NCBI GenBank assembly: GCA_022565355.1
Contig: JAIUMU010000003.1
Span: 119,989-183,988, forward strand
Direction: 5' to 3'
Source of the DNA: Idiomarina sp.
Lineage (GTDB): Bacteria; Pseudomonadota; Gammaproteobacteria; Enterobacterales; Alteromonadaceae
DNA: 64,000 bases
Positions 16,073 through 53,981 of this stretch are shown here, piece after piece. The position numbers and the translations under genes are program-made. Numbering within the stretch: position 1 is the stretch's first letter; each line of letters opens with the position of its first letter. The notes below the pieces were generated by a model that made no database searches, had not been told where the DNA came from, and was given only the letters and a program-made list of their open reading frames with translations.

Positions 16073-16073
16073 C

Positions 16074-17336: not shown

Positions 17337-17347
17337 TTTAGGAGGAA

Positions 17348-21096: not shown

Positions 21097-21105
21097 GATA
21101 CGAAT

Positions 21106-29616: not shown

Positions 29617-29935
29617 TTCTCAATCATTCACGCCCACAGTGATTCAAACCATACAGCACACGCAGCGTGACTTTGCAGGGCCGTTGGCGCAGCACCTGGT
29701 TGATTCACTCCATATTCAACAAGGTAATTCGCTTGTGCCCTATCTTGGCTATGGATTCGAATCCTCCAATCAAGATGCTCTTGAAAGTTGGGTTTACATG
29801 GTTTGCACATCATTGAAGATTCCATTTTCATCGGCGAGCCTCTCCACTCTTGAGAGTATTCTAGCACCCGCGCTAGATGCGTTGAGAAATGAACGGACGC
29901 TCTCGCTTGATATCTGCGAGGTGACTTATGACTGA
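29606..29935 (+). CDS. hypothetical protein
   Basis: Start set at ATG 29606, with AGGAG 7 nt upstream; it overlaps the int stop. 109 aa, no recognisable family. Confidence 0.5.
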   Translation: MMLNSQSFTPTVIQTIQHTQRDFAGPLAQHLVDSLHIQQGNSLVPYLGYGFESSNQDALESWVYMVCTSLKIPFSSASLSTLESILAPALDALRNERTLSLDICEVTYD

Positions 29936-30392
29936 TTCGAATCACCGTCATCACACAAGCGCTGACCGACACGGTCAGCGCCGCGTTGCCGGGCATTTGT
30001 CGGCAAACACACTTAGGCCTCGGCAACATGCGACGCTTGCCTACATCACGATTCAAGAAGCAGCGGCAATGCTTAACGTGAGCGAGCGCACCATCACACG
30101 CTGGATTAAAAAAGACGCCGTCGTCACCTTCAAAAACGGTCATCGCCGGCTGGTCTGTCGCGACTCACTTGCACGATTGACCGACAAGTATGACGACAAA
30201 CGCACCGACACCAATGCACCAGATGACGCAACTTTTACCAATACGCTTTTGGATATTCATGAGCTAATTTCATTGTTAGTGGCGCTTTATCATCCTGAGC
30301 AATTATCGGATTTAACCCGAAAACGCGACATTCAAACGCGCGTTACTGAACTTTGTACTGCCAAAAAACACACCGGAGGCACTCATGATTGA
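29928..30392 (+). CDS. excisionase-family HTH DNA-binding protein
   Basis: ITIQEAAAMLNVSERTITRWIKKDAV matches the excisionase/MerR-type HTH pattern. 8-nt overlaps with both neighbours. Confidence 0.6.
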   Translation: MTDSNHRHHTSADRHGQRRVAGHLSANTLRPRQHATLAYITIQEAAAMLNVSERTITRWIKKDAVVTFKNGHRRLVCRDSLARLTDKYDDKRTDTNAPDDATFTNTLLDIHELISLLVALYHPEQLSDLTRKRDIQTRVTELCTAKKHTGGTHD

Positions 30393-31614: not shown

Positions 31615-31646
31615 GTAAGAGTTACCTTTTGCCATAAAAGTACTCA

Positions 31647-31680
31647 AAGCCCCGAATTACTATTTCGGGGCTTACTTATT
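31647..31680 (+). terminator. rho-independent terminator ending the int operon
   Basis: Stem aagccccgaa / ttcggggctt with a 7-nt loop, followed by a T-rich tail. Confidence 0.6.
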
Positions 31681-31938
31681 CCCTTACGCCTCGGCTCTTA
31701 GCTTTTAAGCACCTGCCTGACTCTCCTCACAGTCCTATCGCTCTCGGAACATTCTTGCCGTGCGAAACTCGTTTTGTAGCACCCCATGAATCATCAAAAT
31801 TGCATGAGTATTGTTCAATTTTTGCCGATTTACACCGTAGAACCCCTAAAAAAGGGTGCTCTACGGGATTTAATACTCGGTGCAAATCAACAACACTATT
31901 GTCATCGAATCCACATCCGAATTATTTCGAGAGACAAA

Positions 31939-32472
31939 ATGACAAAAATTGCACTCAAAAAAATACACTTTATTGATGTCAGCCTGCCAACTGGGTTCGC
32001 ACGCCAGAATCAAAAAATGGCCGAGGCACTATTGGAGCAATCCAGTCTCGAAACCCTACTCGAGGGGCTGCGTGCCATTCAATGTAATCGACGGGTTTAT
32101 GCACTCGAAAAGTTTAATCTTATCCAAGCGCTGCAGCAATTAGCCCCTAGCCTCACGCTTAACTGCTCAATAATCACAGTTAGGACTGTCAGTGATGTTA
32201 AAACTCGGGTAGCCCATGAGATGACTATCGCCAGTGTCAGCTCTGTAGCGCCGATTTTAATCGCCGAGTTCGAGCGCGCGAACAAAGTACCGCATTTGCT
32301 TTGCAAACAGCAGCTTATTGATGTGCTCGGCGTTAGTCGCAGTGCGCCCGGAAAACATAAGGAAAAATTCATTCGGAGTTCTCATTCCGAGGCGCCTGCG
32401 CAACCGTCAGGAAGTTTGGCGCAGCAACTCGCCCACATCCCACCAGAGCGAAAAGAGGATAAGCGGTCATGA
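31939..32472 (+). CDS. hypothetical protein, possible ParB/HTH-like
   Basis: Start uncertain: the ORF is open from 31786, and ATG 31939 gives MTKIALKKIHFIDVS. ATGA overlap with the next gene. ParB-like resemblance is weak. Confidence 0.45.
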   Translation: MTKIALKKIHFIDVSLPTGFARQNQKMAEALLEQSSLETLLEGLRAIQCNRRVYALEKFNLIQALQQLAPSLTLNCSIITVRTVSDVKTRVAHEMTIASVSSVAPILIAEFERANKVPHLLCKQQLIDVLGVSRSAPGKHKEKFIRSSHSEAPAQPSGSLAQQLAHIPPERKEDKRS

Positions 32473-34721: not shown

Positions 34722-37593
34722 TGACGTGGTTGTGCTGCTCTCGTCGGAGCGCACAAATGTTCGAGAGTCCGCCTATTTTGCATTTGAAACGATTCAAAAA
34801 ATCTGTCCGCGCGCGTTTCAGTCTGAGCCTAAGATCCCAAACGATTATTTGGTCAGTCGTGCCCGAACGATTTATGAACGGGCCAGAGATTATCCCGAAC
34901 TCGATGCGCTGCGGCTTGTACTAGTGCATCTATACCGAAGCTTAAAAGACGCCAACCCTGATTTAATAGAGCCTAAGCAAATTTTCCCAGCCCATCGCGA
35001 GCGCCCCGTCATTCACAAGGGTAATCCTTCGTGGCAACTGCAAATGCATCTGCACCAGGCTATCGAGACGGCATTATCTCAGTTGCATAGGCTATCGCCA
35101 GATGTCCGACAGATGACATTAATGCTCGCCCTTGCTCGCCAATATGGTGTTAGCGACGTTGACAGTTTACTCGCAATTCTGGCGCCCGACACGACCATAA
35201 GCTATTTACCCGATGCGGCCCGTGCCATCTGCATCACCTCGACTGGCGAGAATCATTTTTTGGATGCGCCTGCACTTGCGATGTGGAAAAACCTTAGTTC
35301 GTATGTACCGAAGAGCTTGAAGCATATTCATCAAAACTTTGCAGGATGGATTGATTATCAGCGAACCCAAGAGTCAGCGTTTCATTTGCTGAATTGTTCA
35401 CTCGAAGACGCGCTTCTCGCGCTGTCGTTTACCCACCAGAGTCTGGCCTCGGCCAATCTCGGCTCGCTCACCAAACCGCTATCACATTCAGCGCTTATCT
35501 ATGCCCTCACAGGCCAGACGATAACGACAGATTACGAAGTGCCAGAAGAACCTCTGCGTCGACGCCGTAAACGGCTCCCCCAATTTACAAAAATTGCCGA
35601 TTTAACCCCCACTCTTCAGCGGCCATTTAGTTTTCACAGTGAGCTCGGCCAAGAGGATACGATACTCATCAATGCCATTCGCGACGCAGTAAAAAAATAT
35701 GCGAGCGATGACAAACGACAATCGAGGGCATCTCGGTTCTATACCGACCTGACAGCGACACTGCTTAGGCTAATCAATGATGCGCATGCAAATCCGCAGA
35801 TTAGCGTTGTTGCATGGTATGTGGGTTTGTACTGTACTGACCTAATGCTGCACGGAAGCGCTCATAAAAAGCGGCTTCGTGCCTCAACCATGTTGACATA
35901 TCTATCGCGACTTAGCTCATTTGCAAAGGTGGTATGGACTGATGAGCAACTTATGAGTGATGCGCAACATTCATTCGACGCGCGTCTCGAACTTACGATG
36001 CACGTCGCTGAATCACTGAGCGACTACCTCACTGACAGTGAGTTATCCACGATTATCAATTTTTTCTATTACCTACAGCAAACCAGCGCTACGCTTTTTT
36101 TTGATGCGCAAGCGCTCGAATACTCTGGCGCATTTCCGGCAAATACACGCGCGCATTACATCAGCCCACATGATTTTGATATGACGCGTGAGAAGCTTTT
36201 AGAAACACCTAGCCTTGAACGCGAGCAATTTTGGCACTTCGCAACCCTCTGCTATCGACTCGGCCTGCGTCACGAGGAGGCCGCCAAACTCGCCGTTAAC
36301 GACGTGCGCTTTGACTGTGGCGATTTAATCGTGAGTAATGTGCTGCTCCGTAAAACTAACAGAGCGGTTCGTCGAGTCCGGCTGGCTTTTCTCACAACAT
36401 CCGAGCATGTGGCGCTAGAACAATATGTAACAGTTCGAAAAGCACGCGAGCTCGAATCGCTGTTTGATTCCCATGTCATTGACGCACTCCAAAACGAATT
36501 TCTCACAGCTCTACGTGACACTTCAGGTAACTCAGAAGCGGTCATCCACAGCCTCCGCCATAGCGCAGCGAACAATATTCTGTTCCAACTGAGCCTCTGT
36601 TGCATCTGTAATTTAATGGCCTGTCGTCATCGCTATCTGTTTTTGCAACATGACGTATTTGAAGAGCAGCACCTAGACCTAATCAAAAGCGATATTGCAC
36701 AGTCTGGGCGCCAATGCGATCTGTATTTTCCTGTTCTTGATGTGCTCGCTGGGCTACTTGGTCACGTTAGCCCAGCGATTACCATGCAATCGTACCTGCA
36801 TCTATTTCATCTACTCGCGTTTGAGCTAAATGCCTGTCGCGAATTGCCCTTATCCTTGAAAGCATTCATGCAGTTGGTTCCGCGCAATCAATATCGTTAT
36901 GAACACAAGGCTCGGTACAGGAAATGTATGAGCCACGGCTCTGAAAGCGCGAATCGTTACGCATTTAAACACGTCGTTCGCGGCTCCAATAATCAGCAAT
37001 ATCCTCTCAAGGCCGCTCCGGCGAAGAAACGTGTATCGACCAAACCCTTATCGTTCAGTGATTATCTGCTGGCATTACATCGTTACCGGCATGAGCCGCA
37101 GAGTCACTTCGCTAACAACGAGCTGCTCGACCATTTTGACCGGCTTGATGGAATGCTGGGAACCGAGTTTTACGATCGCTGGAAAAGCCGGGATTTCCCA
37201 GTGTGGCTGCGCTTGTTTGAGCGGCTTACAGATTTAAATTCGAACGCTGTGAACAATGACGCACTTGCTACTCTCGCTGCATTGCACGCCTCAAATACTG
37301 TCACGACGATTCGACAACTGAAGCGTTGTCTACGTGCATTTGAAATTCTCGGTTTACATGAACTCCACTTTACTGCTCGAGTGCCAGAAAATAAGCCACT
37401 TTCTCAAGCATGGTTAGAGGCTATTTCTGACGCGGCTCATCATGTCGATTGCCATGAGGACGAACAAGCGACGTCACCCGTGCTCGCGCTGCGACCCCGC
37501 GGTTTACGTTACGCACCTTGGAGCCATTTGCCGACCATCATCAAATTGCATCAGACCTACCAAACGTTGCCGGATAAGACGAGAATATTATGA
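34711..37593 (+). CDS. giant (about 960 aa) tyrosine recombinase
   Basis: Start at ATG 34711, with CAGGAG 7 nt upstream and an 11-nt overlap with the upstream stop. Central catalytic domain: GLRHEEA (Arg), IHSLRHSAAN (HxLRH), LLGHVSPAITMQSYLH (His...Tyr). Long N- and C-terminal extensions. Confidence 0.75.
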   Translation: MGFDDVVVLLSSERTNVRESAYFAFETIQKICPRAFQSEPKIPNDYLVSRARTIYERARDYPELDALRLVLVHLYRSLKDANPDLIEPKQIFPAHRERPVIHKGNPSWQLQMHLHQAIETALSQLHRLSPDVRQMTLMLALARQYGVSDVDSLLAILAPDTTISYLPDAARAICITSTGENHFLDAPALAMWKNLSSYVPKSLKHIHQNFAGWIDYQRTQESAFHLLNCSLEDALLALSFTHQSLASANLGSLTKPLSHSALIYALTGQTITTDYEVPEEPLRRRRKRLPQFTKIADLTPTLQRPFSFHSELGQEDTILINAIRDAVKKYASDDKRQSRASRFYTDLTATLLRLINDAHANPQISVVAWYVGLYCTDLMLHGSAHKKRLRASTMLTYLSRLSSFAKVVWTDEQLMSDAQHSFDARLELTMHVAESLSDYLTDSELSTIINFFYYLQQTSATLFFDAQALEYSGAFPANTRAHYISPHDFDMTREKLLETPSLEREQFWHFATLCYRLGLRHEEAAKLAVNDVRFDCGDLIVSNVLLRKTNRAVRRVRLAFLTTSEHVALEQYVTVRKARELESLFDSHVIDALQNEFLTALRDTSGNSEAVIHSLRHSAANNILFQLSLCCICNLMACRHRYLFLQHDVFEEQHLDLIKSDIAQSGRQCDLYFPVLDVLAGLLGHVSPAITMQSYLHLFHLLAFELNACRELPLSLKAFMQLVPRNQYRYEHKARYRKCMSHGSESANRYAFKHVVRGSNNQQYPLKAAPAKKRVSTKPLSFSDYLLALHRYRHEPQSHFANNELLDHFDRLDGMLGTEFYDRWKSRDFPVWLRLFERLTDLNSNAVNNDALATLAALHASNTVTTIRQLKRCLRAFEILGLHELHFTARVPENKPLSQAWLEAISDAAHHVDCHEDEQATSPVLALRPRGLRYAPWSHLPTIIKLHQTYQTLPDKTRIL

Positions 37594-38801
37594 GCATCAT
37601 CATTAGTACACATCAAACGCTAAACTATCTGAACGCGCTGTTAAGCACTGCGCGTCTTTTAGACACAAAAAAGGCTAGCAGGAGTGAGCGTGTTCAAGAT
37701 GCGCGAGAGCGCGTCGCCATATTTTTCTGTTCTCAATCACAATCCGTGCGATTAACGTCATCCATACAGTACAAATGCGCCCAAGCCACGTTTTCAGTGA
37801 AGAATCATGGCGACTGCATTGCGTCTGATTCGGCCTATGAGATTTCAGCAACCGGACTCTGCCATATCATCGAGAATCTCGAAGCGCACGACTACCTAGA
37901 TTTGACCATTTCCAATGACGAACACCATCTCATCATTCGTGGCGCACATGCTCAATCCGCAGACCTCTTCGCTCAAACGAAACGGTTTGCCATCGCAAAA
38001 TTTGGCAATCAAACGCGGTATAAAGAAGTCCTGACGCCTATAGTCGTTCCGGCCCTATACGAATTTACCCTTGAAGAAAATCGCGGCAAGCTTTCTATTA
38101 CTGCGTCTGATGCAAAAAAACTTCAAGCGTTGTACAGAGTTTGGGAGCTGCTTCCGAAGAGCCGAAATTTCCCTTTCATACTCCGCACTGGCGTGGGTCA
38201 ACTCTATGCAGAAACTAATTTTGCATCGGTAAAACTCTCGCCGCAAGCAGCGCACATGGAATCGTGCCGCTCTGAAATAACAAGCGCAGAGATCCGCGTG
38301 CTAGTCAACTTAATTGACAGCTTTACGAGCCCTAGTCATCAAAAAGTACCTACTATTTTACTTAGCGAGCGATTTGTGTGTTTTTCCTACCACCAATTCC
38401 GAGCGCGTCTACTCACATTGTCGGACCAACGTATGACGACACCACGTCATGAGAGAGATGATGACTGCATCCATCTAAGTAGCGATACCCTTCGGGAGCG
38501 GCTGAAAGCACTTCACATCACCACAGACAAAAAAAGAGATTGGGTAAAAATGACATTTTATCCTGACAATCGCCTACTCCTCGAATTTAAAGACCATGGG
38601 GAAGCTTCGAACGAAATGACATTTATAGGCGGATTAACCAGCACGGTAGAAGAGTCGGTCTCTCGAGAGTATCTATATCGAGCCCTAGATTTGAGCCCAA
38701 ATGAAACTATTACGATATGCGGCTTGCACAACAAAAGTAACGTATTTACGCTGCACTCAAATTCATGCGCTGTGTTGGTGCCAAAAATTCGTAGGTCATA
38801 A
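37590..38801 (+). CDS. hypothetical protein with DnaN (beta sliding clamp)-like sequence pattern
   Basis: 403 aa with an ATGA overlap with the recombinase gene. By eye it parallels E. coli DnaN along its length. N-terminus: MSIIISTHQTLNYLNAL vs MKFTVEREHLLKPLQQV. C-terminus: SREYLYRALDLSPNETITICG...CAVLVPKI vs NVSYVLDVLNALKCENVRMML...AYVVMPMRL. Confidence 0.45.
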   Translation: MSIIISTHQTLNYLNALLSTARLLDTKKASRSERVQDARERVAIFFCSQSQSVRLTSSIQYKCAQATFSVKNHGDCIASDSAYEISATGLCHIIENLEAHDYLDLTISNDEHHLIIRGAHAQSADLFAQTKRFAIAKFGNQTRYKEVLTPIVVPALYEFTLEENRGKLSITASDAKKLQALYRVWELLPKSRNFPFILRTGVGQLYAETNFASVKLSPQAAHMESCRSEITSAEIRVLVNLIDSFTSPSHQKVPTILLSERFVCFSYHQFRARLLTLSDQRMTTPRHERDDDCIHLSSDTLRERLKALHITTDKKRDWVKMTFYPDNRLLLEFKDHGEASNEMTFIGGLTSTVEESVSREYLYRALDLSPNETITICGLHNKSNVFTLHSNSCAVLVPKIRRS

Positions 38802-38948: not shown

Positions 38949-40352
38949 TTAACTTCGTGCTAACTGTACCGCCTTTTTGTACCACCGAGAAACCCATTTC
39001 TCCTTCTTGTCTTCTAACCCGACGCCCTTTACAAGCTTCTCGTACCACTTCTTCAATTTTAACTCGGAGTCTGGTCGAGCCGCGTCTTTTCCGATTTGAA
39101 ACATAAACGATAAGACCACCTGTCGAACCATCCTATCAATCTTTACCAAGCCTAACGGAATGGAAGAAATAGAGGGAGACAAATCGCCGTGTAATATATC
39201 ACTGCGTAACTTGTAGAGCTGCCTGAAGTCATCACGTAACCGCTCCGCCTCCGAAGTATCAACGTACCCTCCAATAACGGTTAAGGCGGCAGCCCTATTC
39301 GAAACTATATTCTTGACACCTTTATTCAGCTTTTTGAATGTCAAAAGTCTTTCAAGACACGTCACATATTTGACTATACGTACAGCAGTATTTGTCTCTC
39401 GAATAGCATCACCCAGCCAACACTGAGCATCCAATAGTCGCTCAACCGTTGCGTATTGCTTGCTGTAATCAAAGCTTAAACTTACACACATACTCTGAAT
39501 GTCTCGGAGCTCGGTAAACTCGCCATCATGAAACTCAGACCAAAAGCGCGCTGGTATGCCAACATTTCCCCTAGACCCTCTAAAGGTGAAACGACAGTAA
39601 TTATTCTCTACTCTGTATATTTCGTCAGACTTGTTAACCGTCGGTATTTGAAAGCCAGCATTCATTCCATCCGAATGCGTTATTGAGGCAATCAGATGAA
39701 GCAGACTCAAAACATGCAAAGACGCCTGAGTAGCCAGCTCACGAGCGACCGAGTAACTATAGACCGAGGGGATCTCAACCAAGGCAACCCACTCATAGTT
39801 ACCATAGTTGGCTACGCACTCACTCCACAGCTCCGCGTCTATATCACTTTTACTTGGTCTTTCAATCTTACCGAGGTGAGCTTGTAAAGCGATTGAGTTC
39901 ATAAGAGTTACACGCTCAAATGATATTTCTACCGCCTCGTCACCAGCGGAGGTAATGTTACAGGGCACGAATACCGTATGGTCTCGGAGCTTTTCAGTTA
40001 TCCTCTGCTTTAAAATTGAAGTGAAATCAGCATCAGTTTTACACTCACTCAGCTGCCCATTACACAAGTCGGTGAATAAATTGAGAACCTCCTGTCTAGC
40101 ATCACCTATCGAAACCTGCTTGTGCCACCTTTGTTTTTCGAGGGCTTTATCTGCAAGCACACACAACGTCTCGTATGCTTCGTCACCTATATGAACATTT
40201 CCTTTTTCTTTGTGCTTAATATACGGTTTGAATAACAATGAGCCACCGCTTTCCAAGTAGTCCATCCGACCATTTCTGTTGATAAACAAGTCCATCTGCT
40301 GAACGGCTCTTGCTAGTAACCTTTGCTTCCCCAATACAGCCTCCATTCTCAT
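38949..40352 (-). CDS. ApeA-like HEPN-domain protein
   Basis: 467 aa. The C-terminal region carries LYKLRSDILHG, an RSxxxHG form of the HEPN Rx4-6H motif. Stand-alone gene, convergent with the recombinase operon. Confidence 0.5.
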   Translation of the reverse strand: MRMEAVLGKQRLLARAVQQMDLFINRNGRMDYLESGGSLLFKPYIKHKEKGNVHIGDEAYETLCVLADKALEKQRWHKQVSIGDARQEVLNLFTDLCNGQLSECKTDADFTSILKQRITEKLRDHTVFVPCNITSAGDEAVEISFERVTLMNSIALQAHLGKIERPSKSDIDAELWSECVANYGNYEWVALVEIPSVYSYSVARELATQASLHVLSLLHLIASITHSDGMNAGFQIPTVNKSDEIYRVENNYCRFTFRGSRGNVGIPARFWSEFHDGEFTELRDIQSMCVSLSFDYSKQYATVERLLDAQCWLGDAIRETNTAVRIVKYVTCLERLLTFKKLNKGVKNIVSNRAAALTVIGGYVDTSEAERLRDDFRQLYKLRSDILHGDLSPSISSIPLGLVKIDRMVRQVVLSFMFQIGKDAARPDSELKLKKWYEKLVKGVGLEDKKEKWVSRWYKKAVQLARS

Positions 40353-40785: not shown

Positions 40786-43158
40786 ATGAAACGAATAATT
40801 GTAAGCTTAATTATCATATTTCTAACAGCCTGTAATAGCAGTGGTTCTAACCCTGAAATTATCGGTGTAAACCTCACTGTCTCACCCACCAGCATCGCTA
40901 CGGGCGATAGCGCAACATTAAATGCGTCGTTAGTTTATGACGATGACACAACGACTAGCTTAAATGCAGCGAACGCGAATTTCTCCATAAACGGTGACGA
41001 AGTAGCCACACTTGATGGCAATCAGCTTACTGGCATAAGTGAAGGCTCCGTTACTGTTACAATGAGCTATGAAGGCTTCACTGACACTGTTTCGGTTACA
41101 GTTGGTCCAGTTGAACTAAGATCTCTAGTGTTGTCCGATGAGAATGTGTCGTTAGCCTTGGGTCAAAGTTATACGCTTGAAGTCTATGGCAAGTATAGTG
41201 ATAACAACGTGAAGCTACTTGAAGAGGCTTCAGTGGAAATCCTAGATATGGATGTCCTTGAATTTAGCAACTCATCGGAAGCCACCATTCTGGAGAGTAT
41301 CGCTGTTGGCGAAACCGAGGTTCTGGTTACTTACGAGCAACTCGAAGCGGTTCTCACTGTGGTGGTAACCGATGCCGAGATCACTCGGATCGTGGTTGGG
41401 ATTGATGACGCACGCATTGCCGCTGGTGAGTCCACAACGCTTCTTGCAAGAGCAACTTTGACTGATAATACCCATCAAAATGTGACGGCAGACACTGTGT
41501 TTTCAAGCAATAGTGATATCGTCGAAATTACCGATAATCGCGTAACTGGAGTTGTCGTAGGTAATGCTCAAATTGAAGGTGAGCATGCCGGTTTTACTGC
41601 CAACGTAGACATTGAAGTAACGCCGGCTGTTATCACCGAGTTGAATATTGAGTCCAGCACTACTAGTTTACCCTTGGGTACTAATGCAACGCTTCATGCG
41701 CAGGCATCCTATTCCGATGGCGATGTTCGTAATGTAAGCAGCAGCGCAGACTGGACGGTCAATGATAGCACTGTCATTGAATTAAATAGCCAAGGCGACA
41801 TGAATGCAGTCGGTGTTGGAGAAACTTCCATAGCAGTTACATACCAAGGCTACTCTGATTCAATCAGTGTTGAAGTTACCGAAGCTGAATTAGTGACTAT
41901 TACATTAAACCCAGCTAGTAAGTTTGAAACTTTTTCAGGCGCGACTTTTACGGCAACCGCATCAGGTACTTATACCGACGGTTCTGAAACGGACATTTCA
42001 AGTAAAGTTAGCTGGAGCAGTAATGACTCTGGTATTGCCAGTGTTAGTAACCATTCTGACCACCCAGGTAGAATTGAGGCAAAGTCCGAAGGTGTTGTGA
42101 CTATTACTGCCTCTTTAAATGGTGAAGCCAATGAATTCGAACTCACAGTCGTAGAAGCGAACTTAGTTGATGTTGAGATTACAAACCAACCTTTAAATGC
42201 CAGCAATGCCTTGATACCTCAACTTATGTCCGTTGATTCGTCAGGCTATATGGGCAACATGAGTATACAAGTAAATAGCTCAGACTTACCGGCTGGCCGC
42301 ACTGTTCAGCTTTATGCCATTGGTACATTTGAAAATAGCGATGTAGCTGATGTCACATCAGCTGTGAGTTGGTCTATTGCAGATACAGATATCGCACAAT
42401 TTACTGATCCAGCAACCGAGCCTGGTAAAGTGAAAGGGCGAATAGTTGGCTCAACCAGCGTTCAAGTTGAATCTGGTAATGGCGTTATGGATTCTTATAG
42501 GCTTGATGTCTCTAACGCTGTTATTGATAGATTGGTTTTCGGTGATGGGGCTGGTGAATCGCTGTTTGTTGGTGAAGAGCGGCAGCTGATTGTTCGGGCT
42601 GAATATTCAAATGGTATAAAAACAGATGTTTCGAGCGATGCTTCCTGGCAGTCTTCAGATCCGGCTATCTTGTATGTGATGAATGAGCCTAGTGCCAAGG
42701 GACGAGTTAAAGGGCAACGGCTGGGAGATGAATCCATCACTGCAAGTCTAGAAGGGATTTCAGTCATCGAGTCAATTGCAACTATTAGCCCAGTAAGCGC
42801 AGTAATGTGTCGCCAGATATTTTCTGAGTGTAATGACTTATCCCTTCCTTATCTTGCGTTAGGTACAAAAAGTATTTCACGAATTCCAGCCCCAGCATGG
42901 TTTGACATCGTAGATCCAATTACGATTACAGTTTTAGGGGAATCAGTTACTGTAACTAGTGTTTCAAATTCGTTTCCTGAAAACTGCAGAGTGACTGGTT
43001 TGGAACAAGGCGATACTTTAAACGTCGGTGACGAAGTTGAGGTGAAGTTTCAGGTTGCTAGAACGTTTGGGCAAAGCGAATTCTGCCCATTAGGCATAGA
43101 GTTTAATGGAAGTAATGATATTAGACTTCAGGTTAATTATTCAATTACAACTAACTAA
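40786..43158 (+). CDS. surface lipoprotein with about seven bacterial Ig-like (Big_2) repeats
   Basis: Lipobox LTAC after the signal peptide. Repeated units of about 90 aa (ATLxAxAxYSDGxxxDVTxxxxWSSxDxxIAxVxxxGxVxGxxxGxxxITA pattern). Confidence 0.85.
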   Translation: MKRIIVSLIIIFLTACNSSGSNPEIIGVNLTVSPTSIATGDSATLNASLVYDDDTTTSLNAANANFSINGDEVATLDGNQLTGISEGSVTVTMSYEGFTDTVSVTVGPVELRSLVLSDENVSLALGQSYTLEVYGKYSDNNVKLLEEASVEILDMDVLEFSNSSEATILESIAVGETEVLVTYEQLEAVLTVVVTDAEITRIVVGIDDARIAAGESTTLLARATLTDNTHQNVTADTVFSSNSDIVEITDNRVTGVVVGNAQIEGEHAGFTANVDIEVTPAVITELNIESSTTSLPLGTNATLHAQASYSDGDVRNVSSSADWTVNDSTVIELNSQGDMNAVGVGETSIAVTYQGYSDSISVEVTEAELVTITLNPASKFETFSGATFTATASGTYTDGSETDISSKVSWSSNDSGIASVSNHSDHPGRIEAKSEGVVTITASLNGEANEFELTVVEANLVDVEITNQPLNASNALIPQLMSVDSSGYMGNMSIQVNSSDLPAGRTVQLYAIGTFENSDVADVTSAVSWSIADTDIAQFTDPATEPGKVKGRIVGSTSVQVESGNGVMDSYRLDVSNAVIDRLVFGDGAGESLFVGEERQLIVRAEYSNGIKTDVSSDASWQSSDPAILYVMNEPSAKGRVKGQRLGDESITASLEGISVIESIATISPVSAVMCRQIFSECNDLSLPYLALGTKSISRIPAPAWFDIVDPITITVLGESVTVTSVSNSFPENCRVTGLEQGDTLNVGDEVEVKFQVARTFGQSEFCPLGIEFNGSNDIRLQVNYSITTN

Positions 43159-47176: not shown

Positions 47177-47339
47177 GTTTCAGTATTTAGACATTTGTTC
47201 ATGCCTGTTAATTGTCAGCACTGGTAAGGCCTGATATTTATAGGTACTTTCTACGCTGTAAGTAATCAAAAAAGAGCGCTATCGACTATCTAACTTATCA
47301 GTGGTGATTCACCTTACTAAAAATAGAAAGAGTAAAAAC

Positions 47340-47783
47340 ATGTTTAATAACAAAAATAAATGTATCTACCATTACTTTGCTGATGTCGCTCGGCGACAAT
47401 TTCTATTATACATCTTAGCATTACTTTTCCTTTTACCCTTTCTCTTGGTATTTGGAGACCTTATGTTAGTAAAAGTAGAAATTGTGCTTGCGATTCTTTT
47501 GCTTCTTTGTCTGAGAGTTTTCTATGTTGCTCTGAAATTTACGATTTCAGACTATAGAGCGCCACCTTCCGTATTCTGGAGCCTTTTTGAAATTATCATG
47601 ACTCTACTGGTATTAGTCGTGTTTTTTTATGTTTATTTAGCGGGTCATTGTGTAGTTAGTGAGGCATCTTTAGGATCGACGGATATTGCATTTGTAGGCT
47701 TTTGGTCCAGTGTAATATTTGCAGTGATGGAAGGCATAGAGGTACGTTGGTCCCGCAAATATTCTGACGTTAATCATCAATGA
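47340..47783 (+). CDS. multi-pass membrane protein, unknown function
   Basis: About four hydrophobic helices. ATG 47340 is preferred over the GTG at 47301. Confidence 0.5.
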   Translation: MFNNKNKCIYHYFADVARRQFLLYILALLFLLPFLLVFGDLMLVKVEIVLAILLLLCLRVFYVALKFTISDYRAPPSVFWSLFEIIMTLLVLVVFFYVYLAGHCVVSEASLGSTDIAFVGFWSSVIFAVMEGIEVRWSRKYSDVNHQ

Positions 47784-48045: not shown

Positions 48046-49512
48046 ATGGGTTCAATGATAATAAATAGACCCTTTTATATCAGTGACTGGTGCCGTGATT
48101 CACAGCTTTTAATGAATTTTTCACGGAAGTTAATCATAAATAGAAAAAAGTATCCGAATTTACTTGTGTGCCCACTTACAAAAGGACTTGTCGAAGTGAA
48201 AAAGCCAACTACAAAGACCTTACGATACTTACTAATCCGTCGGCGGTCTGCAATGAAGCAACTAAGACGACAGTTTAAAATAAAACGGAAAAGACATCTA
48301 AAGCAGGAGAAAAGCAATCTGGTTTTTGGTAATCGACTTCGCGAATATAACTACTATAAAAATTGTCACCAAAAAGTAGACGTTAGTAACCGCCAAAGAA
48401 GAACATCTATAATACTTCCTCAACAATTTTCAGCAGCACTGAATCCTGACGGAGTATTGTCTGTCCTGCACATGGCTTTATCCTGTTCCGATATACCGGA
48501 TGTGAAGCGTATCTTTATATCCCATGAAAAAGTTAAGAAGCACGACTTGGCGGCCGAAGTAATGCTATCGGCCCTCCTTTCAAGCATAAGATCCCACCGG
48601 GCTCAACCAAAGTTTAAAAATATCACATATGCTGGCCGCTTTTCTGGGAGCTCTCAAATAAACCGTTTGGTTCAGTCAATTGGAATTGTGAAAGATTTTG
48701 GAAGCGTTGACGCAAAAATTGATGCGCCGGCGGCGGAAAAAATAAAACTATTTAATGCTTCGGGTATTTTTTACGAAAAGAAGAGTGCTTATTCGACCGA
48801 TAGAAAGACCCGGGTAACCGCGAGACTGGTGTCGCACATCGATGAAACACTAAACACTTCAGAACTTTCTCTTGCTCAACGCCCAAAAAGTGATTTGCGA
48901 AAGTATATAGGTGAGTTGCTAGATAATGCAGAATCACACTCTGGCGACTCACTATGGCATGCTTATGCGTATTTAGACGAAGGATTTATCTCCTCCGAGA
49001 GTAAGTCGGAAATCGTAGTTGTTAGTTATGGGAACTCCATATCAGATACTTTCAAAGAAAAAAGAAACGTTCCAAAAGTATGGGGGCAGCTCTGGAAGCT
49101 CGTAGAACATCACCGCGGCAAGATAGCTGACGACATCTTAATTTCAATATCTGCACTTACCCATCTAGTGTCTAGCAAGAAGGATATTGATAACAGTAGA
49201 GGTACGGGAACGCGAGAAGTTTTAAGGCTATTTAAGAATATTGCTGAAGCTTGGTCCAAAGAAACGAATAGACAGGCGTCAAAATTTGCCCCCGTATTGA
49301 CAATCATCACTGGTAACGTCTTTTTACAAATCGTTGCTGAACATGTAATTGCACACGATATCAGCGACAAAACCAAGGTTTTACCATTCAATGATGAGCA
49401 GGATCCGCACCTTCTTCCTAGCGAAAAGTATGCAAGAGAGCTAAAATACAGATTCCCTGGTACCATCGTAAGCATTCGCTTCCCTTACACTAAAAGCCTG
49501 ATTAATAACTAA
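48046..49512 (+). CDS. GHKL (HATPase_c)-like ATPase/kinase, SpoIIAB/RsbW-like core
   Basis: N-box-like YIGELLDNAESHSG and a G-box-like DNSRGTGTREV. Very basic N-terminus. Start uncertain, with an alternative ATG at 48253. Confidence 0.45.
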   Translation: MGSMIINRPFYISDWCRDSQLLMNFSRKLIINRKKYPNLLVCPLTKGLVEVKKPTTKTLRYLLIRRRSAMKQLRRQFKIKRKRHLKQEKSNLVFGNRLREYNYYKNCHQKVDVSNRQRRTSIILPQQFSAALNPDGVLSVLHMALSCSDIPDVKRIFISHEKVKKHDLAAEVMLSALLSSIRSHRAQPKFKNITYAGRFSGSSQINRLVQSIGIVKDFGSVDAKIDAPAAEKIKLFNASGIFYEKKSAYSTDRKTRVTARLVSHIDETLNTSELSLAQRPKSDLRKYIGELLDNAESHSGDSLWHAYAYLDEGFISSESKSEIVVVSYGNSISDTFKEKRNVPKVWGQLWKLVEHHRGKIADDILISISALTHLVSSKKDIDNSRGTGTREVLRLFKNIAEAWSKETNRQASKFAPVLTIITGNVFLQIVAEHVIAHDISDKTKVLPFNDEQDPHLLPSEKYARELKYRFPGTIVSIRFPYTKSLINN

Positions 49513-49523
49513 GGTAGGATATC

Positions 49524-49853
49524 GTGACATCCGTTAAAAGTATCGATATAACAACAGTTTCATCAGCTCCGGACGGGGTTTATGTTGGACGAGACAACGG
49601 CGAAGCTACCAGAAAAGCTATAATGCAGGATAAGAACATTAACTTAATGGATAAAGATATACGAGTTCGATTCGTATTCCCTAGAACTGCCGAAACTATA
49701 ACGACCTCATTCTTTTTGGGAATGTTATCTCAAAGTATTTATAACTTTAAAACTAAAGAGGACTTCCTGAAGCATTTCCAGTTTGATGCTAATGAGTACT
49801 TAATGGAAGACATCCACCAAGGCATTGATGATGCGTTTGATTCGTTGGATTAA
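49524..49853 (+). CDS. STAS-like (DUF4325-type) protein
   Basis: 109 aa. IRVRFVFPRTAETITTSFFLGML matches the DUF4325 pattern v.ldF.gv..is.SF. It starts 11 nt after the ATPase gene. Confidence 0.5.
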   Translation: MTSVKSIDITTVSSAPDGVYVGRDNGEATRKAIMQDKNINLMDKDIRVRFVFPRTAETITTSFFLGMLSQSIYNFKTKEDFLKHFQFDANEYLMEDIHQGIDDAFDSLD

Positions 49854-49855
49854 AA

Positions 49856-50428
49856 ATGACTGATCGCTATATGAAAATTTCAGGGGATTTATTTTTGTCG
49901 GAAGAAATGCTTTTAAGTCTTCTTACAGCAAAGAGTGGCCCCAACGATTGGGTGTTCTTTCTTGCGCCTGCTGCTTCATTAATAATTGTATCCGTTTCGG
50001 TTATCATTTTCCTATTTACTGAACGAAACAAGAAAAGAGAGTTTCAGAAAAACCAGTCTAATAACCTTTGGTTCAAAGAGGTTATATTCAATGACAATAT
50101 AAAACCATTCTTTGATTACCTGCTTAAAGCGCACACTTTAACAACTAAAGCTAGGGGTACTGGACTGAATTCAGATGAATTCAATGCCCTTAAAACTCAC
50201 CTCATCCGCGAGTACCGTAAAGTTAAACACGGCCTAATCATTTGCAAGAACCTCCCTGGTTTCCACGAACCTATAAACGCTGTCATCGCAAAGTCTGAGA
50301 GCACACGCGATAGACACTTAATGTGGACTCGAAAGATAGATAGCTACTCACCCACTGAAACTTTCATCGATCTATATACTGAAAGTTTTAAAAGGCTAAC
50401 CGATGCCCATCTTGATAGTCTCACCTAA
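49856..50428 (+). CDS. single-pass membrane protein, unknown function
   Basis: 190 aa with one TM helix (WVFFLAPAASLIIVSVSVIIFLF). 2-nt gap from the STAS-like gene. Confidence 0.55.
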   Translation: MTDRYMKISGDLFLSEEMLLSLLTAKSGPNDWVFFLAPAASLIIVSVSVIIFLFTERNKKREFQKNQSNNLWFKEVIFNDNIKPFFDYLLKAHTLTTKARGTGLNSDEFNALKTHLIREYRKVKHGLIICKNLPGFHEPINAVIAKSESTRDRHLMWTRKIDSYSPTETFIDLYTESFKRLTDAHLDSLT

Positions 50429-50717
50429 AGAAACCTAGTTTCATTTAATCAGACGGTGTTCAGGATGATTTCGAAACGGTAGGAATAAGCCCCACAGTGT
50501 TGAAATTTGTCTACATCAAAAGTCAGGTTTTTTCGCCAAACTAAATTTTTTTGTCGCGGCTAAAGGTCAAAAAATTGTGCTTGGAAAACACATGTATGTG
50601 CCACTATTTTGCATAGAATGATCTAAATCGGGGTGAAATATGAAAGGGGAATACTACTGAATGCCTCGTAAGGCCCTGTTTTTACTATATATACCGATTG
50701 ACCCCCAACTACCCTTC

Positions 50718-50766
50718 CGCCCTCCGGAGGCGGAGGCCAGAGGTTCGAATCCTCTCGGGTGCGCCA
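50718..50766 (+). repeat. 49-bp direct repeat of the tRNA-Arg 3' part (attR of island 1)
   Basis: cgccctccggaggcggaggccagaggttcgaatcctctcgggtgcgcca is identical to 14777-14825. It starts in the anticodon stem. Confidence 0.9.
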
Positions 50767-50774
50767 GAACGTTA

Positions 50775-50800
50775 AAACCCACCTATCATGGTGGGTTTTT
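50775..50800 (+). terminator. rho-independent terminator directly after the displaced tRNA 3' fragment
   Basis: Stem aaacccacc / ggtgggttt, loop tatcat, followed by a T-run. Its position suggests it is the native tRNA terminator. Confidence 0.6.
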
Positions 50801-50923
50801 GCGTTTTTGTGCCCGGGAGATGAGAAACTCTCTAGGTTCGACAAAACGGCAGGATAGCCGTTTTGGGCGTGCGAGCAACGCGAGAACGCCCCGAAGGGGT
50901 GAGCGCCATGGATGGCGCGAATC

Positions 50924-50956
50924 AATCCTCTCGGGTGCGCCATCAAAGGCTATCAG
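50924..50956 (+). repeat. short repeat of the last about 22 nt of tRNA-Arg plus island-left-end sequence
   Basis: aatcctctcgggtgcgcca is followed by tcaaaggctatcagc. At 14826 the intact tRNA is followed by tcaaaggcttacagc, a 13/15 match. Confidence 0.75.
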
Positions 50957-51268
50957 CCAAACCCTTCAGTTAAATAATTCGAACTACACCGCACTTCCAA
51001 AATCACGGCCTTGACCTTCGTTCGAAAATTGAATTTTAGCACTATTATTTCGCTGGGACCGTCATGGGACCATTCTGGGACCAAAAAATTCGAGAGCAGT
51101 TTCTTCATTCAATAATTCGACCTCTAGCCCAAAGTCTCCAAGATTTTATTTTCGAGCTATGTGATATATCTATAACTATCAGGCCTTACCAATAATCTGC
51201 GTATTCATTAGGGTCATCCTCATCTTCTGTAGCACTATAAGTACCCATTCGGCTTTGCTCAAAACTTC

Positions 51269-51838
51269 TTATACTTTGCTCAAAAAAAAGCCGAATGATG
51301 AATTAGAACTATCAGTAACTTTGTAATGCGCTTCATATTCTATTTCGGCTCGGTCAAGCGCTGAAATTAAATCGAGTTCATTTACGGAAAACGTAGTATG
51401 AGTACATGAGGTTGATTTAGTGGCCGGTCCAAAATAAACACAGAAAGTATATCTTTGAACTTCACCAAACTCTTCTGTGTTCAACTTTTCTCCACGTGGT
51501 TTTAGGGAAAAGCTTCTAGGGCTTTCCCTAGTGAAATACTTGATGGCACTAATTAAACCATTGACTCGTTCTTCCGTAGTTGTGAACCTTCCGTCTCTTC
51601 GGCTAGTTAGAAAGGATCTGTAGAATTCCTTTTCTTGAGTTTCCTGAGACGCGGTTGAAGTTTCTAATTCATCGGTATGAAACGAGAGATGGTAATTACC
51701 GTTAACATCGATCGACACTTGGATTGGATCTTTGTGATTAAAATCGAGATCTTCAATTTCCGTAGATGCGTTTGCAGCCAAAGGCGATGTTGCCAATAAG
51801 GAGGCTAGAATGAGAGATTTCATAATTATTAATTTCAT
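51269..51838 (-). CDS. secreted hypothetical protein
   Basis: 189 aa with a signal peptide (SLILASLLATSPLAANA). Confidence 0.55.
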   Translation of the reverse strand: MKLIIMKSLILASLLATSPLAANASTEIEDLDFNHKDPIQVSIDVNGNYHLSFHTDELETSTASQETQEKEFYRSFLTSRRDGRFTTTEERVNGLISAIKYFTRESPRSFSLKPRGEKLNTEEFGEVQRYTFCVYFGPATKSTSCTHTTFSVNELDLISALDRAEIEYEAHYKVTDSSNSSFGFFLSKV

Positions 51839-51995
51839 ATTATTTCCTTATATTTCATCTGCTTATAAATATTCAGTTACAAAGCCCTTTTCTCTTTTAA
51901 GAATGTAAATCCGCTGTCGCTTGAGTATGGTGAGGCCTGATTATTCTAGACACTTTCTAGTTACTCAAAATACTCACGTTACCAATCGGGTAAAT

Positions 51996-53315
51996 TCATT
52001 CGATCAGAAGTCGACGTTTACGCTCAAGCATACCTTCAAAAATAGGAGTCGAAACGCGCATCGGAAAATCATCCGGCAAATCGTTTTTCACTCGTTCAAT
52101 AACATCATCCACTTTATTGCATAGGGTGGTGATAATTTCGCTCATTCGGCTCGGGCTGAATTCAGCGTCTCTTGCGGTATTTAAAAAATGCCGCCGAAAA
52201 ATTTGATAGATACGCCATTTCTTTCCACTCGACCCTCGCAAGCTCATCGCAAGTTTTAAATCACGAATATTCAGGCCGCTTCCGCCTATTGCAGTGTAAG
52301 CAGAAGTGATGTCATAAAGCGGTGTTAACCGGTAGGCACCAAAGGGCTCTATGTGCACAGAGAAGTTCTTCGCATGCCCATCGGTTGCGCCTAAGAGAAA
52401 AAATAGCACCTGCGCTGCCATAAAAGTTTCACGATCGCGCGTAGGCTCAGAAGAGCCCTGAAGGTGTTTCATAATTTTGGCAGTCGTTGGTCCGTTATCC
52501 GATTCGTATTTTCTAGCAGAGGGCAAACCCAGTATCTGACAGTAATCTTCTTGAGGAAGTCTCATTAGCCACGAGTGATCTGGGGAATACTTACGATCGA
52601 AGCGCTCAATGGCGAGGGCTTTAATAGTTGGCGTGGTAATCACTTCACAATCAGGCGCATCAAAACCAAATGCTTTTGCAATTCTTAGGCACAACATTTC
52701 ATTCTCAACGCTATCAGTCAGGTCAATCGTGTGATCATGGCTTTGGATCTTCCCAATAGGAAGCTTAATGATGTGCGTAGTTGGGGTGTTCCCTTTTGGA
52801 AGACACCATGCATTGCCTATTTTTAGCAGGGCTGTTTTTTCCTGAGCGCCGGCAATTGAAATTCTAAAATCGTCTAGCTCCCGCAACATGCCCAAAGGTG
52901 CCTTGGATTGATAACCTTTTAAAATTCTCTCTAATTTGTCTTCGGTGAGTCTTTCATATTCCAGTTCATGAACGCTCCCTAGGTCTTCGTTTTCGGGAAC
53001 GAACTGCAATGCACCTATACTATCTTTTCCAATCGTCGAGAGTAGGTCAAAAGCTTGGTCGGAGTCGGCTTGATAGCGGGCAACAATTCTGTCTCTAATT
53101 TCTTCATTGTCGGGCAGTAAGTTATCAAAAAAGTTAATGACCTCCCGTCCTGAGTATTCGTCGTGCCTTAACGGCATCGACAAAGAAATTGGACGCGCTC
53201 CCACTTTGATAATCCAGCTCTTATCGTAACAGAACGTATGAGCGCCGGAATCACTTCGTCTCAAGTAGCCTACGCAGTAGCCGTTCATGTAAATAGCGAG
53301 TGTACTCATTACCAA
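51996..53315 (-). CDS. hipA: type II toxin HipA-family serine/threonine kinase
   Basis: 439 aa with a HipA N-terminal coupling-domain pattern (LAIYMNGYCVGYL...FCYDKSW) and a kinase core (DGHAKNFS). Overlaps hipB by 7 nt. Confidence 0.9.
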   Translation of the reverse strand: MVMSTLAIYMNGYCVGYLRRSDSGAHTFCYDKSWIIKVGARPISLSMPLRHDEYSGREVINFFDNLLPDNEEIRDRIVARYQADSDQAFDLLSTIGKDSIGALQFVPENEDLGSVHELEYERLTEDKLERILKGYQSKAPLGMLRELDDFRISIAGAQEKTALLKIGNAWCLPKGNTPTTHIIKLPIGKIQSHDHTIDLTDSVENEMLCLRIAKAFGFDAPDCEVITTPTIKALAIERFDRKYSPDHSWLMRLPQEDYCQILGLPSARKYESDNGPTTAKIMKHLQGSSEPTRDRETFMAAQVLFFLLGATDGHAKNFSVHIEPFGAYRLTPLYDITSAYTAIGGSGLNIRDLKLAMSLRGSSGKKWRIYQIFRRHFLNTARDAEFSPSRMSEIITTLCNKVDDVIERVKNDLPDDFPMRVSTPIFEGMLERKRRLLIE

Positions 53316-53584
53316 TCCTCACTCCATTTGGCATCGGGCAACACAGAGTTAGAATCATCCTTCAAATCATTGCTATTTTTAGGTTTTACTGACAGCTCAA
53401 GCTCTAAAGCTGATAGTAAACGAAATAAAGTATCAAGCTGCATTTTCTCTGGCATTGATTCAAATTTAGAAACCGTTCCTTGCCTAAGCCCAACTAAATC
53501 ACCAACCTTGGCTTGACTCAGGCCGCGAGTTCTTCGTTTATCTCGTATGTAGTTTGATAATGCTTTGGGATCAGTAATTTTCAT
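53309..53584 (-). CDS. hipB: HipB-like XRE-family antitoxin
   Basis: 91 aa with HTH GLSQAKVGDLVGLRQGTVSKFE, immediately upstream of hipA. Confidence 0.85.
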   Translation of the reverse strand: MKITDPKALSNYIRDKRRTRGLSQAKVGDLVGLRQGTVSKFESMPEKMQLDTLFRLLSALELELSVKPKNSNDLKDDSNSVLPDAKWSEDW

Positions 53585-53619
53585 TGCGCTCTCTTTATAA
53601 GCGAGTTCATATAAACCTT

Positions 53620-53697
53620 ATTTTAGACGCACTTGCGTATAAGTCAACATTCATACGCAAGTGCGTATGAATACGATTTTATACGTGAATGCGTATA
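53620..53697 (-). promoter_or_regulatory. hipBA promoter with three TATACGCA-N2-TGCGTATA-type operator palindromes
   Basis: On the minus strand: TTGACT (53642-53647), 16-nt spacer, TAAAAT (53620-53625). Palindromes at 53624-53641 (7/8), 53651-53670 (perfect 9+2+9: tcatacgca-ag-tgcgtatga) and 53680-53697 (6/8). Confidence 0.55.
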
Positions 53698-53925
53698 GAT
53701 AATATTTGATATGGATTCGCGTATAATAATTACAAACGGAAGGAGTTTCGGAGAATACCGATGCGCGGCTAAAGGTCAAAAGCTCGACTTTTTGAAACCG
53801 CTTTATGTGACACAATTTTGCATAGAACGATCTAAAGTGGGGTGAAATACCGGTGAAACGATCTTTAAAAATCATCTTAAACTACTGTTTTTAATGAATA
53901 TACCGATTTGCCCCTGCTATCCTTT

Positions 53926-53981
53926 CCGCACTCCGGAGGCGGAGGCGGAGGTCAGAGGTTCAAATCCTCTCGGGCGCGCCA
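53926..53981 (+). repeat. degenerate tRNA-Arg 3' fragment (outermost att scar)
   Basis: ccgcactccggaggcggaggcggaggtcagaggttcaaatcctctcgggcgcgcca. It resembles the tRNA 3' part, with several substitutions and a 6-nt ggaggc duplication. Confidence 0.75.

Follow-up and report, generated by a model that had tools for sequence, protein, structure and literature searches.

The stretch of DNA analysed here, hereafter the window, comprises 64,000 nt of Idiomarina sp. (assembly GCA_022565355.1, contig JAIUMU010000003.1, positions 119,989 to 183,988 of the forward strand) and carries, at the right end of a 36-kb island, a trio of consecutive genes that we refer to as genes A, B and C. All three lie on the + strand. 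The longest open reading frame (ORF) of gene A spans 48046..49512 (488 aa), and the coordinates of the other two genes are collected in Table 1 together with those of the features described below. The ORFs are exactly as an earlier note, made from the sequence alone, had placed them, with spacings of 11 nt between A and B and 2 nt between B and C. Gene B starts with GTG and has a Shine-Dalgarno-like GGTAGGA 4 nt upstream, and the ATG of gene C lies 2 nt past the stop codon of gene B. The island lies at a tRNA-Arg gene (14749-14825) whose 3′ 50 nt (14776-14825) are duplicated exactly in the right attachment (att) repeat, and the trio ends ∼290 nt inside that repeat, in agreement with the note's placing of the genes at the right end of an island. 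A Type I restriction-modification (R-M) system and integrase genes are also part of the island content, and downstream of the trio only the att repeat is found before the island ends.

The protein encoded by gene A is in all likelihood shorter than the longest ORF. An identical database protein (P0001, 419 aa) begins at Met70 of this ORF, and the relatives of gene A in our alignments begin at the equivalent MK(K). Because of these two observations we took gene A as 48253..49512, and M70 is very probably its start. The 488-aa length given in the note was therefore not retained, whereas the highly basic N-terminus that it had described was, since 14 Lys and Arg residues fall within the first 45 residues counted from M70 (the range given in Table 1 was taken over the first 12 aligned proteins of the A family). 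Direct scans of genes A, B and C against Pfam, NCBIfam and PADLOC gave no useful match, and their closest relatives likewise matched nothing when scanned against Pfam, so that deeper methods were needed. An exhaustive profile search recovered 1,030 cluster representatives of the gene A family at E<=1e-3 (clusters at 50% identity, the number being a lower bound), nearly all of them ∼440 aa long; the family size is taken from this search, as a word-indexed homologue search retrieved only 3 relatives of gene A. The alignment used hereafter contains 119 family members, and column counts for gene A are given out of 119.

Sequence-profile searches of the Protein Data Bank (PDB) with profiles of A and B (3, 79 and 110 sequences) gave no meaningful match. 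An AlphaFold2 (AF2) model of gene A was computed from the 119-sequence alignment with high confidence (pLDDT 91.7, pTM 0.91). It opens with a long helix over residues 2-37, continues with an alpha/beta domain at ∼50-170 and closes with an alpha/beta sandwich spanning residues 184-419. When this model was compared with the PDB using Foldseek, the high-probability matches were exclusively SpoIIAB anti-sigma kinases and STAS domains, with weak E-values. The best SpoIIAB structures were 1l0o_A (prob 0.96, TMt 0.66) and 1tid_A (TMt 0.67), and the STAS side of the protein matched TM1442 (prob 0.94, TMt 0.57) as well as SpoIIAA and the STAS domains of prestin/SLC26. From these structural matches the model indicates that gene A is a STAS-like domain joined to a GHKL (Bergerat-fold) kinase domain. 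Among 110 relatives scanned against Pfam, HATPase_c_2 was detected in 2 and HATPase_c in 1, the best match being HATPase_c_2, which is the RsbW/SpoIIAB type.

The motifs of the kinase domain are in line with this assignment. The sequences IGELLDNAESHSG and SRGTGT that the note had quoted for gene A, and RVRFVFPRTAETITTSFFLGML for gene B, were all found in the translations. Within the family, the E-x3-N of the N-box, the glycine loop of the G2 box and the overall fold agree with those of GHKL proteins, whereas the D-x-G-x-G of the G1 box is absent. Instead, the G1 consensus of the family is N-F-G-x-S/T-I: column 258 is N in 101, S in 14 and D in 3 sequences, G260 is found in 119/119 and column 262 is S/T in 118/119. 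The gene A of the window has Ser258 at the position of the G1 Asp. Two further residues, G354 and N380, are invariant, and F401-P402-G403 nearly so. The note's proposal of a GHKL/ATPase fold is thus borne out by the SpoIIAB matches, by the invariant E and N of the N-box and the G2 glycines, and by the profile alignment with VapK described below. In the STAS-like domain, which the note had missed, the N-terminus of helix alpha2 is occupied by Leu99, without a phosphorylatable residue. We considered Asp98 as a possible phosphomimetic and rejected it, as profile alignment places it at the conserved Asp of the STAS F-x-D and the phospho-position at Leu99. As for phages, gene A matched phrog_3364, a family of unknown function, and its model is structurally similar to one phage protein (J7KH07, E 6e-4); a tblastn search of 50,697 phage genomes with gene A gave no match.

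Gene B encodes a small single-domain protein, for which a profile of three orthologues recovered 107 relatives with a length of ∼105 aa. The protein of the window did not match Pfam even at E<=1. Its 79 aligned relatives, on the other hand, included 17 that matched PF14213 (DUF4325), with a best value of 2.8e-6, and no other family was matched; the UniRef names of two relatives also point to DUF4325. By transitivity through these relatives, gene B appears to be a divergent branch of DUF4325. The note's description of gene B as a STAS-like DUF4325 protein is in this way upheld at the level of the family, of which the antitoxin VapS discussed below is a strong member, and not by the window protein itself. 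Against PHROGs, gene B matched phrog_37359, another family of unknown function. The AF2 model (pLDDT 92.3) is a single alpha/beta domain with the layout beta-alpha-beta-alpha-beta-alpha, in which helix alpha2 covers residues 61-74. The most conserved feature of the family, T-S-S-F-F-L-G-M-F-G, lies over the start of this helix and contains a candidate phospho-acceptor pair, since column 61 is S in 71 and T in 8 of the 79 relatives and column 62 is S in 79/79. No helix-turn-helix (HTH) family of Pfam was matched by the window protein or by the 79 relatives, and gene B is not plausible as a DNA-binding repressor.

Gene C encodes a bitopic membrane protein with a short N-terminus, one transmembrane (TM) helix, as the note had stated, and a cytoplasmic region of ∼135 aa. 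A basic stretch follows the helix, and after it comes a juxtamembrane motif whose W72, E75 and P84 do not vary among the three closest relatives; the motif is also present in the copies of the Vibrio, Shewanella and Alcaligenes type. The protein occurs in a short form, which is that of the window, and in a long form to which a signal peptide or another TM helix and a periplasmic segment are added. In many relatives this periplasmic segment contains Cys.

Table 1. Positions of the trio, of its domains and motifs and of the right end of the island (window coordinates)
Feature	Position	Strand	Basis or remark
Gene A, predicted STAS-GHKL kinase, VapK homologue	48253..49512	+	419 aa from M70; longest ORF from 48046
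Gene A polybasic N-terminal helix, residues 1-37	48253..48363	+	AF2 helix 2-37; 8-18 K+R in first 45 residues
Gene A STAS-like alpha/beta domain, residues ∼50-170	48400..48762	+	AF2 secondary structure, Foldseek, alignment to VapK STAS
Gene A GHKL kinase domain, residues 184-419	48802..49509	+	Foldseek to SpoIIAB
Gene A N-box KYIGELLDNAESHSG, residues 217-231	48901..48945	+	E221, N225 119/119; H229 118/119
Gene A atypical G1 box S-Y-G-N-S-I, residues 258-263	49024..49041	+	Alignment columns
Gene A G2 box R-G-T-G-T, residues 316-320	49198..49212	+	G317, G319 invariant; R316 110/119; T320 109/119
Gene B, single-domain DUF4325/STAS-like, putative phospho-switch/antitoxin	49524..49853	+	109 aa
Gene B Thr61-Ser62, candidate phospho-acceptor pair	49704..49709	+	Within TTSFFLGM, first turn of helix alpha2
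Gene C, bitopic membrane protein, putative effector	49856..50428	+	190 aa; homologous third genes in other loci
Gene C TM helix, residues 33-51	49952..50008	+	Kyte-Doolittle 2.6 over 19 residues; then basic ERNKKRE
Gene C juxtamembrane motif WFKEVIFNDNIKP, residues 72-84	50069..50107	+	Family pattern FW-x-K/R-E-V/I ... P
Right attachment repeat of the island	50717-50766	+	Exact copy of tRNA-Arg 3′ 50 nt; context, outside trio

The same three genes were found together in other genomes. The two closest relatives of gene A carry the same trio, one in the early region of an Idiomarina prophage and the other with an integrase as its neighbour, adjacent to smpB. When distant relatives of gene B were used as the starting point, the same A+B+C order was found in Vibrio, as Tn7-like cargo beside TniQ/TnsD, and this order was also observed in Shewanella algae beside HipA, in Bradyrhizobium beside an integrase and in an Alcaligenes prophage beside an S24 repressor. 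In the relatives, the starts of the trio genes overlap or abut. We then scanned one genome per species with a seed consisting solely of the N-box peptide of gene A (12-sequence alignment), and obtained 40 loci from several phyla (Gamma-, Beta- and Alphaproteobacteria, Bacteroidota, Gemmatimonadota, Verrucomicrobiota, Deinococcota, Omnitrophota and Bacillota). A B-family ORF adjoined gene A in 37 of the 37 loci in which gene A is intact, 34 of them by a strict rule and 3 with the ORF nearby, where crude ORF rules had missed it. A third ORF on the same strand abutted gene B in 33 of the 34 (gap -74 to +25 nt, 167-292 aa), and the lone exception may be clipped at the end of its contig. Iterative profile searches placed 30 of the 40 third genes in one family, and the remaining 10 share its plan, in which a hydrophobic helix at the N-terminus is followed by a basic stop-transfer stretch and by a cytoplasmic domain rich in charges; a Kyte-Doolittle threshold of 1.6 was reached by 34 of the 40. 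In all 33 readable loci of the scan, the third gene encodes a small protein with an N-terminal hydrophobic helix that is not PIN-like. A B gene and a membrane-protein gene follow gene A in essentially every genome examined, in contrast to the lack of linkage that the note had named as refuting its idea, and the recurrence of the arrangement across phyla, in a scan that knew only the gene A peptide, goes beyond chance. Two loci looked irregular. In Alcanivorax sp. IL2 (L026, 5911-7617) the gene A ORF ends early, with gene B 306 nt further on, and may be frameshifted, and in a Trueperaceae metagenome-assembled genome (L040, 5764-8271) the sole B-family match is a short ORF ∼1 kb downstream of gene A; both copies could be decaying or rearranged.

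To describe the surroundings of the trio, the two large ORFs closest to it on either side were surveyed at 35 loci, giving 127 ORFs that matched 151 Pfam families. Among them were genes of the mobile-element type, namely integrases, Tn3 transposases, phage terminases and capsid, Mrr and DNA methyltransferases. Strong PADLOC matches among the neighbours corresponded to Shango SngC, Hachiman HamB, Lamassu LmuA, BREX PglZ/BrxH and PD-Lambda-5_B, and further to MzaA, AbiEi, a DRT reverse transcriptase, MADS mad3 and PDC-S72. Judged from this list of neighbours, the surroundings are those that defence cargo on mobile elements usually has. Homologues of gene A are also carried by seven plasmids, where six are annotated as 'hypothetical protein' and one is unannotated; the homologues include those in Yersinia aleksiciae, Proteus faecis and Pantoea plasmids. 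In Bradyrhizobium (L011, 8719-12330), genes for a patatin and a ThiF-domain protein follow the trio and the integrase, and may form another defence operon.

The note knew of no characterised system of this composition. A characterised relative does exist in the CapKS and VapKSC systems (Chambers et al., EMBO J 2026; PMC13373217). CapK (HTH-STAS-GHKL) is switched on by single-stranded DNA (ssDNA) and phosphorylates the repressor CapS (STAS-wHTH, where wHTH is a winged HTH) on a Ser of STAS helix alpha2, while VapK (STAS-GHKL) phosphorylates the antitoxin VapS (116 aa, on Ser48) and thereby frees the PIN toxin VapC; the VapKSC operon shields Escherichia coli from phage Bas42 by about 2 logs and is associated with mobile elements and defence islands (PMC13373217). 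A survey of 2017 had noted PIN genes coupled to DUF4325 genes, and no more.

We compared the trio with these proteins, taking the sequences of VapK and VapS from the model files of PMC13373217. VapS matched PF14213 at 2.7e-17 and VapK matched HATPase_c weakly. Set against VapK alone, the A profile gave no significant match (hmmsearch 0.006 at Z=1; hhalign prob 1.4%), and the single-sequence comparisons of VapK and VapS with the A and B families were non-significant yet in register, for which reason profiles of VapK-like and VapS-like proteins were built from homologues. The VapK-like profile consists of 5 sequences and includes those of a Deinococcus plasmid, whose locus is a canonical K-S-PIN operon, and of Burkholderia, Marinitoga and Streptococcus phages. 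Alignment of the A family (119) with this profile (5) by hhalign gave a probability of 97.5% and an E-value of 8.6e-12 over 275 columns covering both domains. Profile alignment thus indicates true homology between gene A and VapK. For gene B, whose column 61 is aligned with VapS Ser48, the comparison with its relatives suggests a place in the VapS/DUF4325 family.

The trio shares with VapKSC the order of its three genes (kinase, small STAS protein, output protein), a second protein of ∼110 aa assigned to the DUF4325 family with Ser/Thr before F-F/F-x at the N-terminus of alpha2, and the location on mobile elements and defence islands. It differs in that its third gene encodes a membrane protein and not a PIN nuclease such as VapC. 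In addition, gene A is ∼120 aa longer than VapK, with insertions in the kinase domain and a polybasic N-terminal helix that is absent from VapK and occupies the place of the CapK HTH; its G1 box reads N-x-G-x-S/T, in contrast to D-F/L-G-V/I-G in the VapK-like proteins; and the position of VapK F54 is polar and variable. PMC13373217 makes no mention of a membrane-protein variant, and literature searches, of incomplete coverage, retrieved no published description of one. By analogy, the trio would represent a candidate variant of the characterised CapKS/VapKSC kind and not a wholly new module.

The phages that contributed VapK-like sequences also carry VapK-like and STAS pairs, which have no third gene in Burkholderia phage vB_E188 (L054, 2501-3708; beside an integrase), a 53-aa ORF as the third in Marinitoga phage MPV1 (L055, 2411-4082) and a 66-aa ORF in Streptococcus phage Javan140 (L057, 2111-3688). 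Pairs with such other third components suggest that the kinase-STAS switch has a wider range of outputs than a PIN or a membrane protein.

On these grounds we consider it reasonably probable (about 60%) that the trio is a VapKSC-like phospho-switch with a membrane output, carried as cargo of an integrative island. According to this model, gene A would encode an anti-sigma type (SpoIIAB/VapK/CapK) serine/threonine kinase that carries a STAS-like regulatory domain of its own, gene B its single-domain STAS/DUF4325 substrate, and gene C a membrane-anchored output in place of the VapC nuclease. In an uninfected cell, unphosphorylated B would be bound to the cytoplasmic part of C and keep it inert. 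A cue derived from infection or damage would switch on kinase A, which would phosphorylate Ser/Thr61 or Ser62 of B, where alpha2 begins. Phosphorylated B would then release C, and free C would perturb the membrane, leading to arrest or death of the cell before the phage cycle is completed. What the analysis itself shows are the conserved arrangement of the genes, their folds and catalytic motifs, the homology of A to VapK, the family of B, the topology of C and the mobile, defence-rich context. From the analogy with VapKSC we infer the defence function and the effector role of C, and, within them, the kinase activity, the phosphorylation of B, the B-C interaction, the toxicity of C, the trigger and the protection against phage. 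The note's interpretation, which had pointed in this direction, is supported overall, and all the computational checks that the note had listed as possible refutations were run without refuting it.

Membrane-effector abortive-infection modules exist, for example those of CBASS or Pycsar with TM effectors. The trio resembles them in that a small membrane protein is the sole candidate output of a sensor-switch system in a defence island, and differs in its proposed control by phosphorylation of a STAS partner, as opposed to a nucleotide second messenger. No sequence relationship was detected between the trio and these modules.

Several results weigh against a VapKSC-like switch with membrane output. 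PADLOC v2 has no model for genes A, B or C. Gene C matched no Pfam, PADLOC or PHROG family, nor any known toxin or pore family. The model of gene B had no significant match in the PDB by Foldseek, the best being macro domains at E 0.29, so that its STAS label comes from the family assignment and the topology, and the alignment of the B family with the VapS-like profile was weak (hhalign prob 35%, E 4e-4). The G1 box of gene A is without the canonical adenine-contacting Asp, which is replaced by N/S in 115 of the 119 sequences. As a consequence of this replacement, the family could have an altered nucleotide specificity or binding mode. Finally, the aromatic residue that stacks on ssDNA, F54 in VapK and W68 in CapK (PMC13373217), is F or W in 5/5 VapK-like sequences and aligns to column 96 of gene A, which is N/K/E/R/S; the adjacent column 97 is a mixture of Y/L/I/F/H, and a shift of the alignment by one residue is possible at this position. 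Since the stacking aromatic is not conserved in gene A, the trigger may differ from that of VapK and CapK, and for this reason the trigger is the least certain part of the model. The near-invariant Phe59 of gene A was considered as the counterpart of VapK F54 and rejected, as profile alignment gave no support.

The loss of this aromatic, together with the gain of the polybasic helix and the alteration of the G1 box, is the reason for a more far-reaching proposal, in which the large clade of VapK-like kinases formed by the A family would have both input and output swapped. The kinase would respond to a trigger other than ssDNA and form, together with its membrane partner, a transmembrane phospho-switch that senses envelope or membrane events at phage entry and also carries out abortive infection at the level of the membrane. 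We put this forward tentatively, as a possibility with the odds clearly against it.

It is unlikely, though it deserves attention, that C is not an effector and serves as a membrane anchor or sensor that recruits or regulates the A-B pair, for example upon envelope perturbation at phage adsorption or injection. In that case kinase A would itself provide the output, through its action on proteins of the host or phage or on an unlinked target. The long form of gene C, with its extra signal peptide or TM helix and Cys-containing periplasmic segment in many relatives, fits such a role, as do the family-specific polybasic helix of A, which could bind the membrane, the variable residue at the ssDNA-stacking position and the lack of any known toxin family matching C. 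However, the copy of the window and many others (forms of 178-217 aa) have almost no periplasmic part, so that periplasmic sensing cannot be general; moreover, in the characterised relative VapKSC the third gene is the effector, and the inspected loci contain no other conserved gene that could act as the output.

We assign a similarly low probability to the trio being mainly an addiction or stress module of the toxin-antitoxin (TA) type, which would stabilise the mobile element or answer DNA damage and for which protection against phage would be incidental. The trio is always on islands, prophages, transposons or plasmids, HipA-type TA genes adjoin it in the neighbouring islet of the window and in Shewanella, and the authors of VapKSC themselves regard the line between stress response and immunity as blurred (PMC13373217). 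Against this, the neighbours of the trio are rich in dedicated anti-phage systems, and VapKSC confers the protection against phage cited above. An addiction or stress role is, furthermore, compatible with the proposed membrane-output switch, because the molecular mechanism would be identical.

The two remaining explanations were rejected as their defining parts are absent. It is very improbable that A and B form a transcriptional control pair of the CapK/CapS type for a neighbouring immune operon. A does share the STAS-GHKL kinase core with CapK and VapK, CapK likewise acts on a STAS substrate at a conserved Ser of alpha2, and CapKS pairs are common beside immune operons and R-M systems (PMC13373217). 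Nevertheless, A lacks the N-terminal HTH of CapK and B is a 109-aa single domain without the winged helix of CapS, the genes stand at the end of the island and are followed by C and the att repeat only, and in place of a downstream immune operon the conserved partner is always a small membrane protein. Just as remote is a housekeeping partner-switching module of the SpoIIAB-SpoIIAA/RsbW-RsbV kind controlling a sigma factor: the kinase domain of A resembles SpoIIAB, its best PDB match, B belongs to the STAS family, and in those modules too a GHKL Ser-kinase acts on a STAS antagonist, but neither a sigma factor nor a PP2C phosphatase was seen in the inspected neighbourhoods or among the top 25 of the 151 neighbour Pfam families, A bears a STAS domain of its own, and the trio is a mobile three-gene unit, patchily distributed across phyla, whose constant third partner is a membrane protein.

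The rest of the island was also inspected. A Type I R-M cluster (15473-25902) comes directly after the tRNA-Arg gene and contains two N6_Mtase genes (420 and 806 aa), two Methylase_S specificity genes (199 and 442 aa) and an HsdR-type helicase-nuclease (1008 aa). Midway along the island there is an integrase (28420-29616, Arm-DNA-bind_2/Phage_integrase), followed, within 28420-38801, by large ORFs of 409, 750 and 403 aa without a Pfam match and by a 985-aa protein (34636-37593) whose sole Pfam domain is a weak Phage_integrase. This recombinase-containing run seems to resemble multi-gene mobility modules such as the Gamma-Mobile-Trio, which have their cargo at the island end. The island may be a composite. 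Between the recombinase genes and the trio, the cargo comprises a 467-aa ORF on the minus strand (38949-40352) without a PHROG match and a 790-aa ORF (40786-43158) with a lipoprotein-like N-terminus (LTAC) and internal sequence repeats. A multi-TM ORF of 160 aa (47301-47783), with a weak match to DesK_N (E 0.0026), is located just upstream of the trio. We considered it as a member of the system and rejected it because it is not kept beside the trio in the other genomes inspected; it is probably separate cargo.

After the main island, a second small islet was found within 50555-53981. It has a copy of the tRNA 3′ end and left-flank-like sequence at 50924-50957 (94% to 14807-14840); at 53932-53981 there is a degenerate att copy (80%). 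Upstream of the two right-hand att copies there is homology over ∼210 nt (50555-50640 versus 53764-53849, and 50676-50737 versus 53885-53946, 79%). The sequence suggests that two related elements stand in tandem at the tRNA-Arg gene. The islet carries two ORFs on the minus strand, of 439 aa (51996-53315) and 91 aa (53309-53584), which overlap and look like a HipA-like kinase and its HTH partner when the translations are judged by eye. A hairpin with a T-run (50774-50799) directly follows the att repeat and resembles the native tRNA terminator in a displaced position.

CapKS and VapKSC were described in 2026 as the first cases of an anti-sigma kinase/STAS switch that serves immunity, and the trio suggests that this switch is also coupled to a membrane-protein output. 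The family is widespread, with at least 1,030 clusters at 50% identity in many phyla, and strictly syntenic, while its members are 'hypothetical' or unnamed in the records that were checked. If the proposed function is correct, the trio would add a new defence (or TA-like) system and offer a clean test of the modularity of the kinase-STAS switch, and, owing to the differing ssDNA-contact residue and G1 box, it would provide a natural comparison for the determinants of the trigger. The homologues on Yersinia, Proteus and Pantoea plasmids make the trio directly testable in E. coli. Should both input and output prove to be swapped, the trio would represent a route of immune signalling so far undescribed for STAS-kinase modules.

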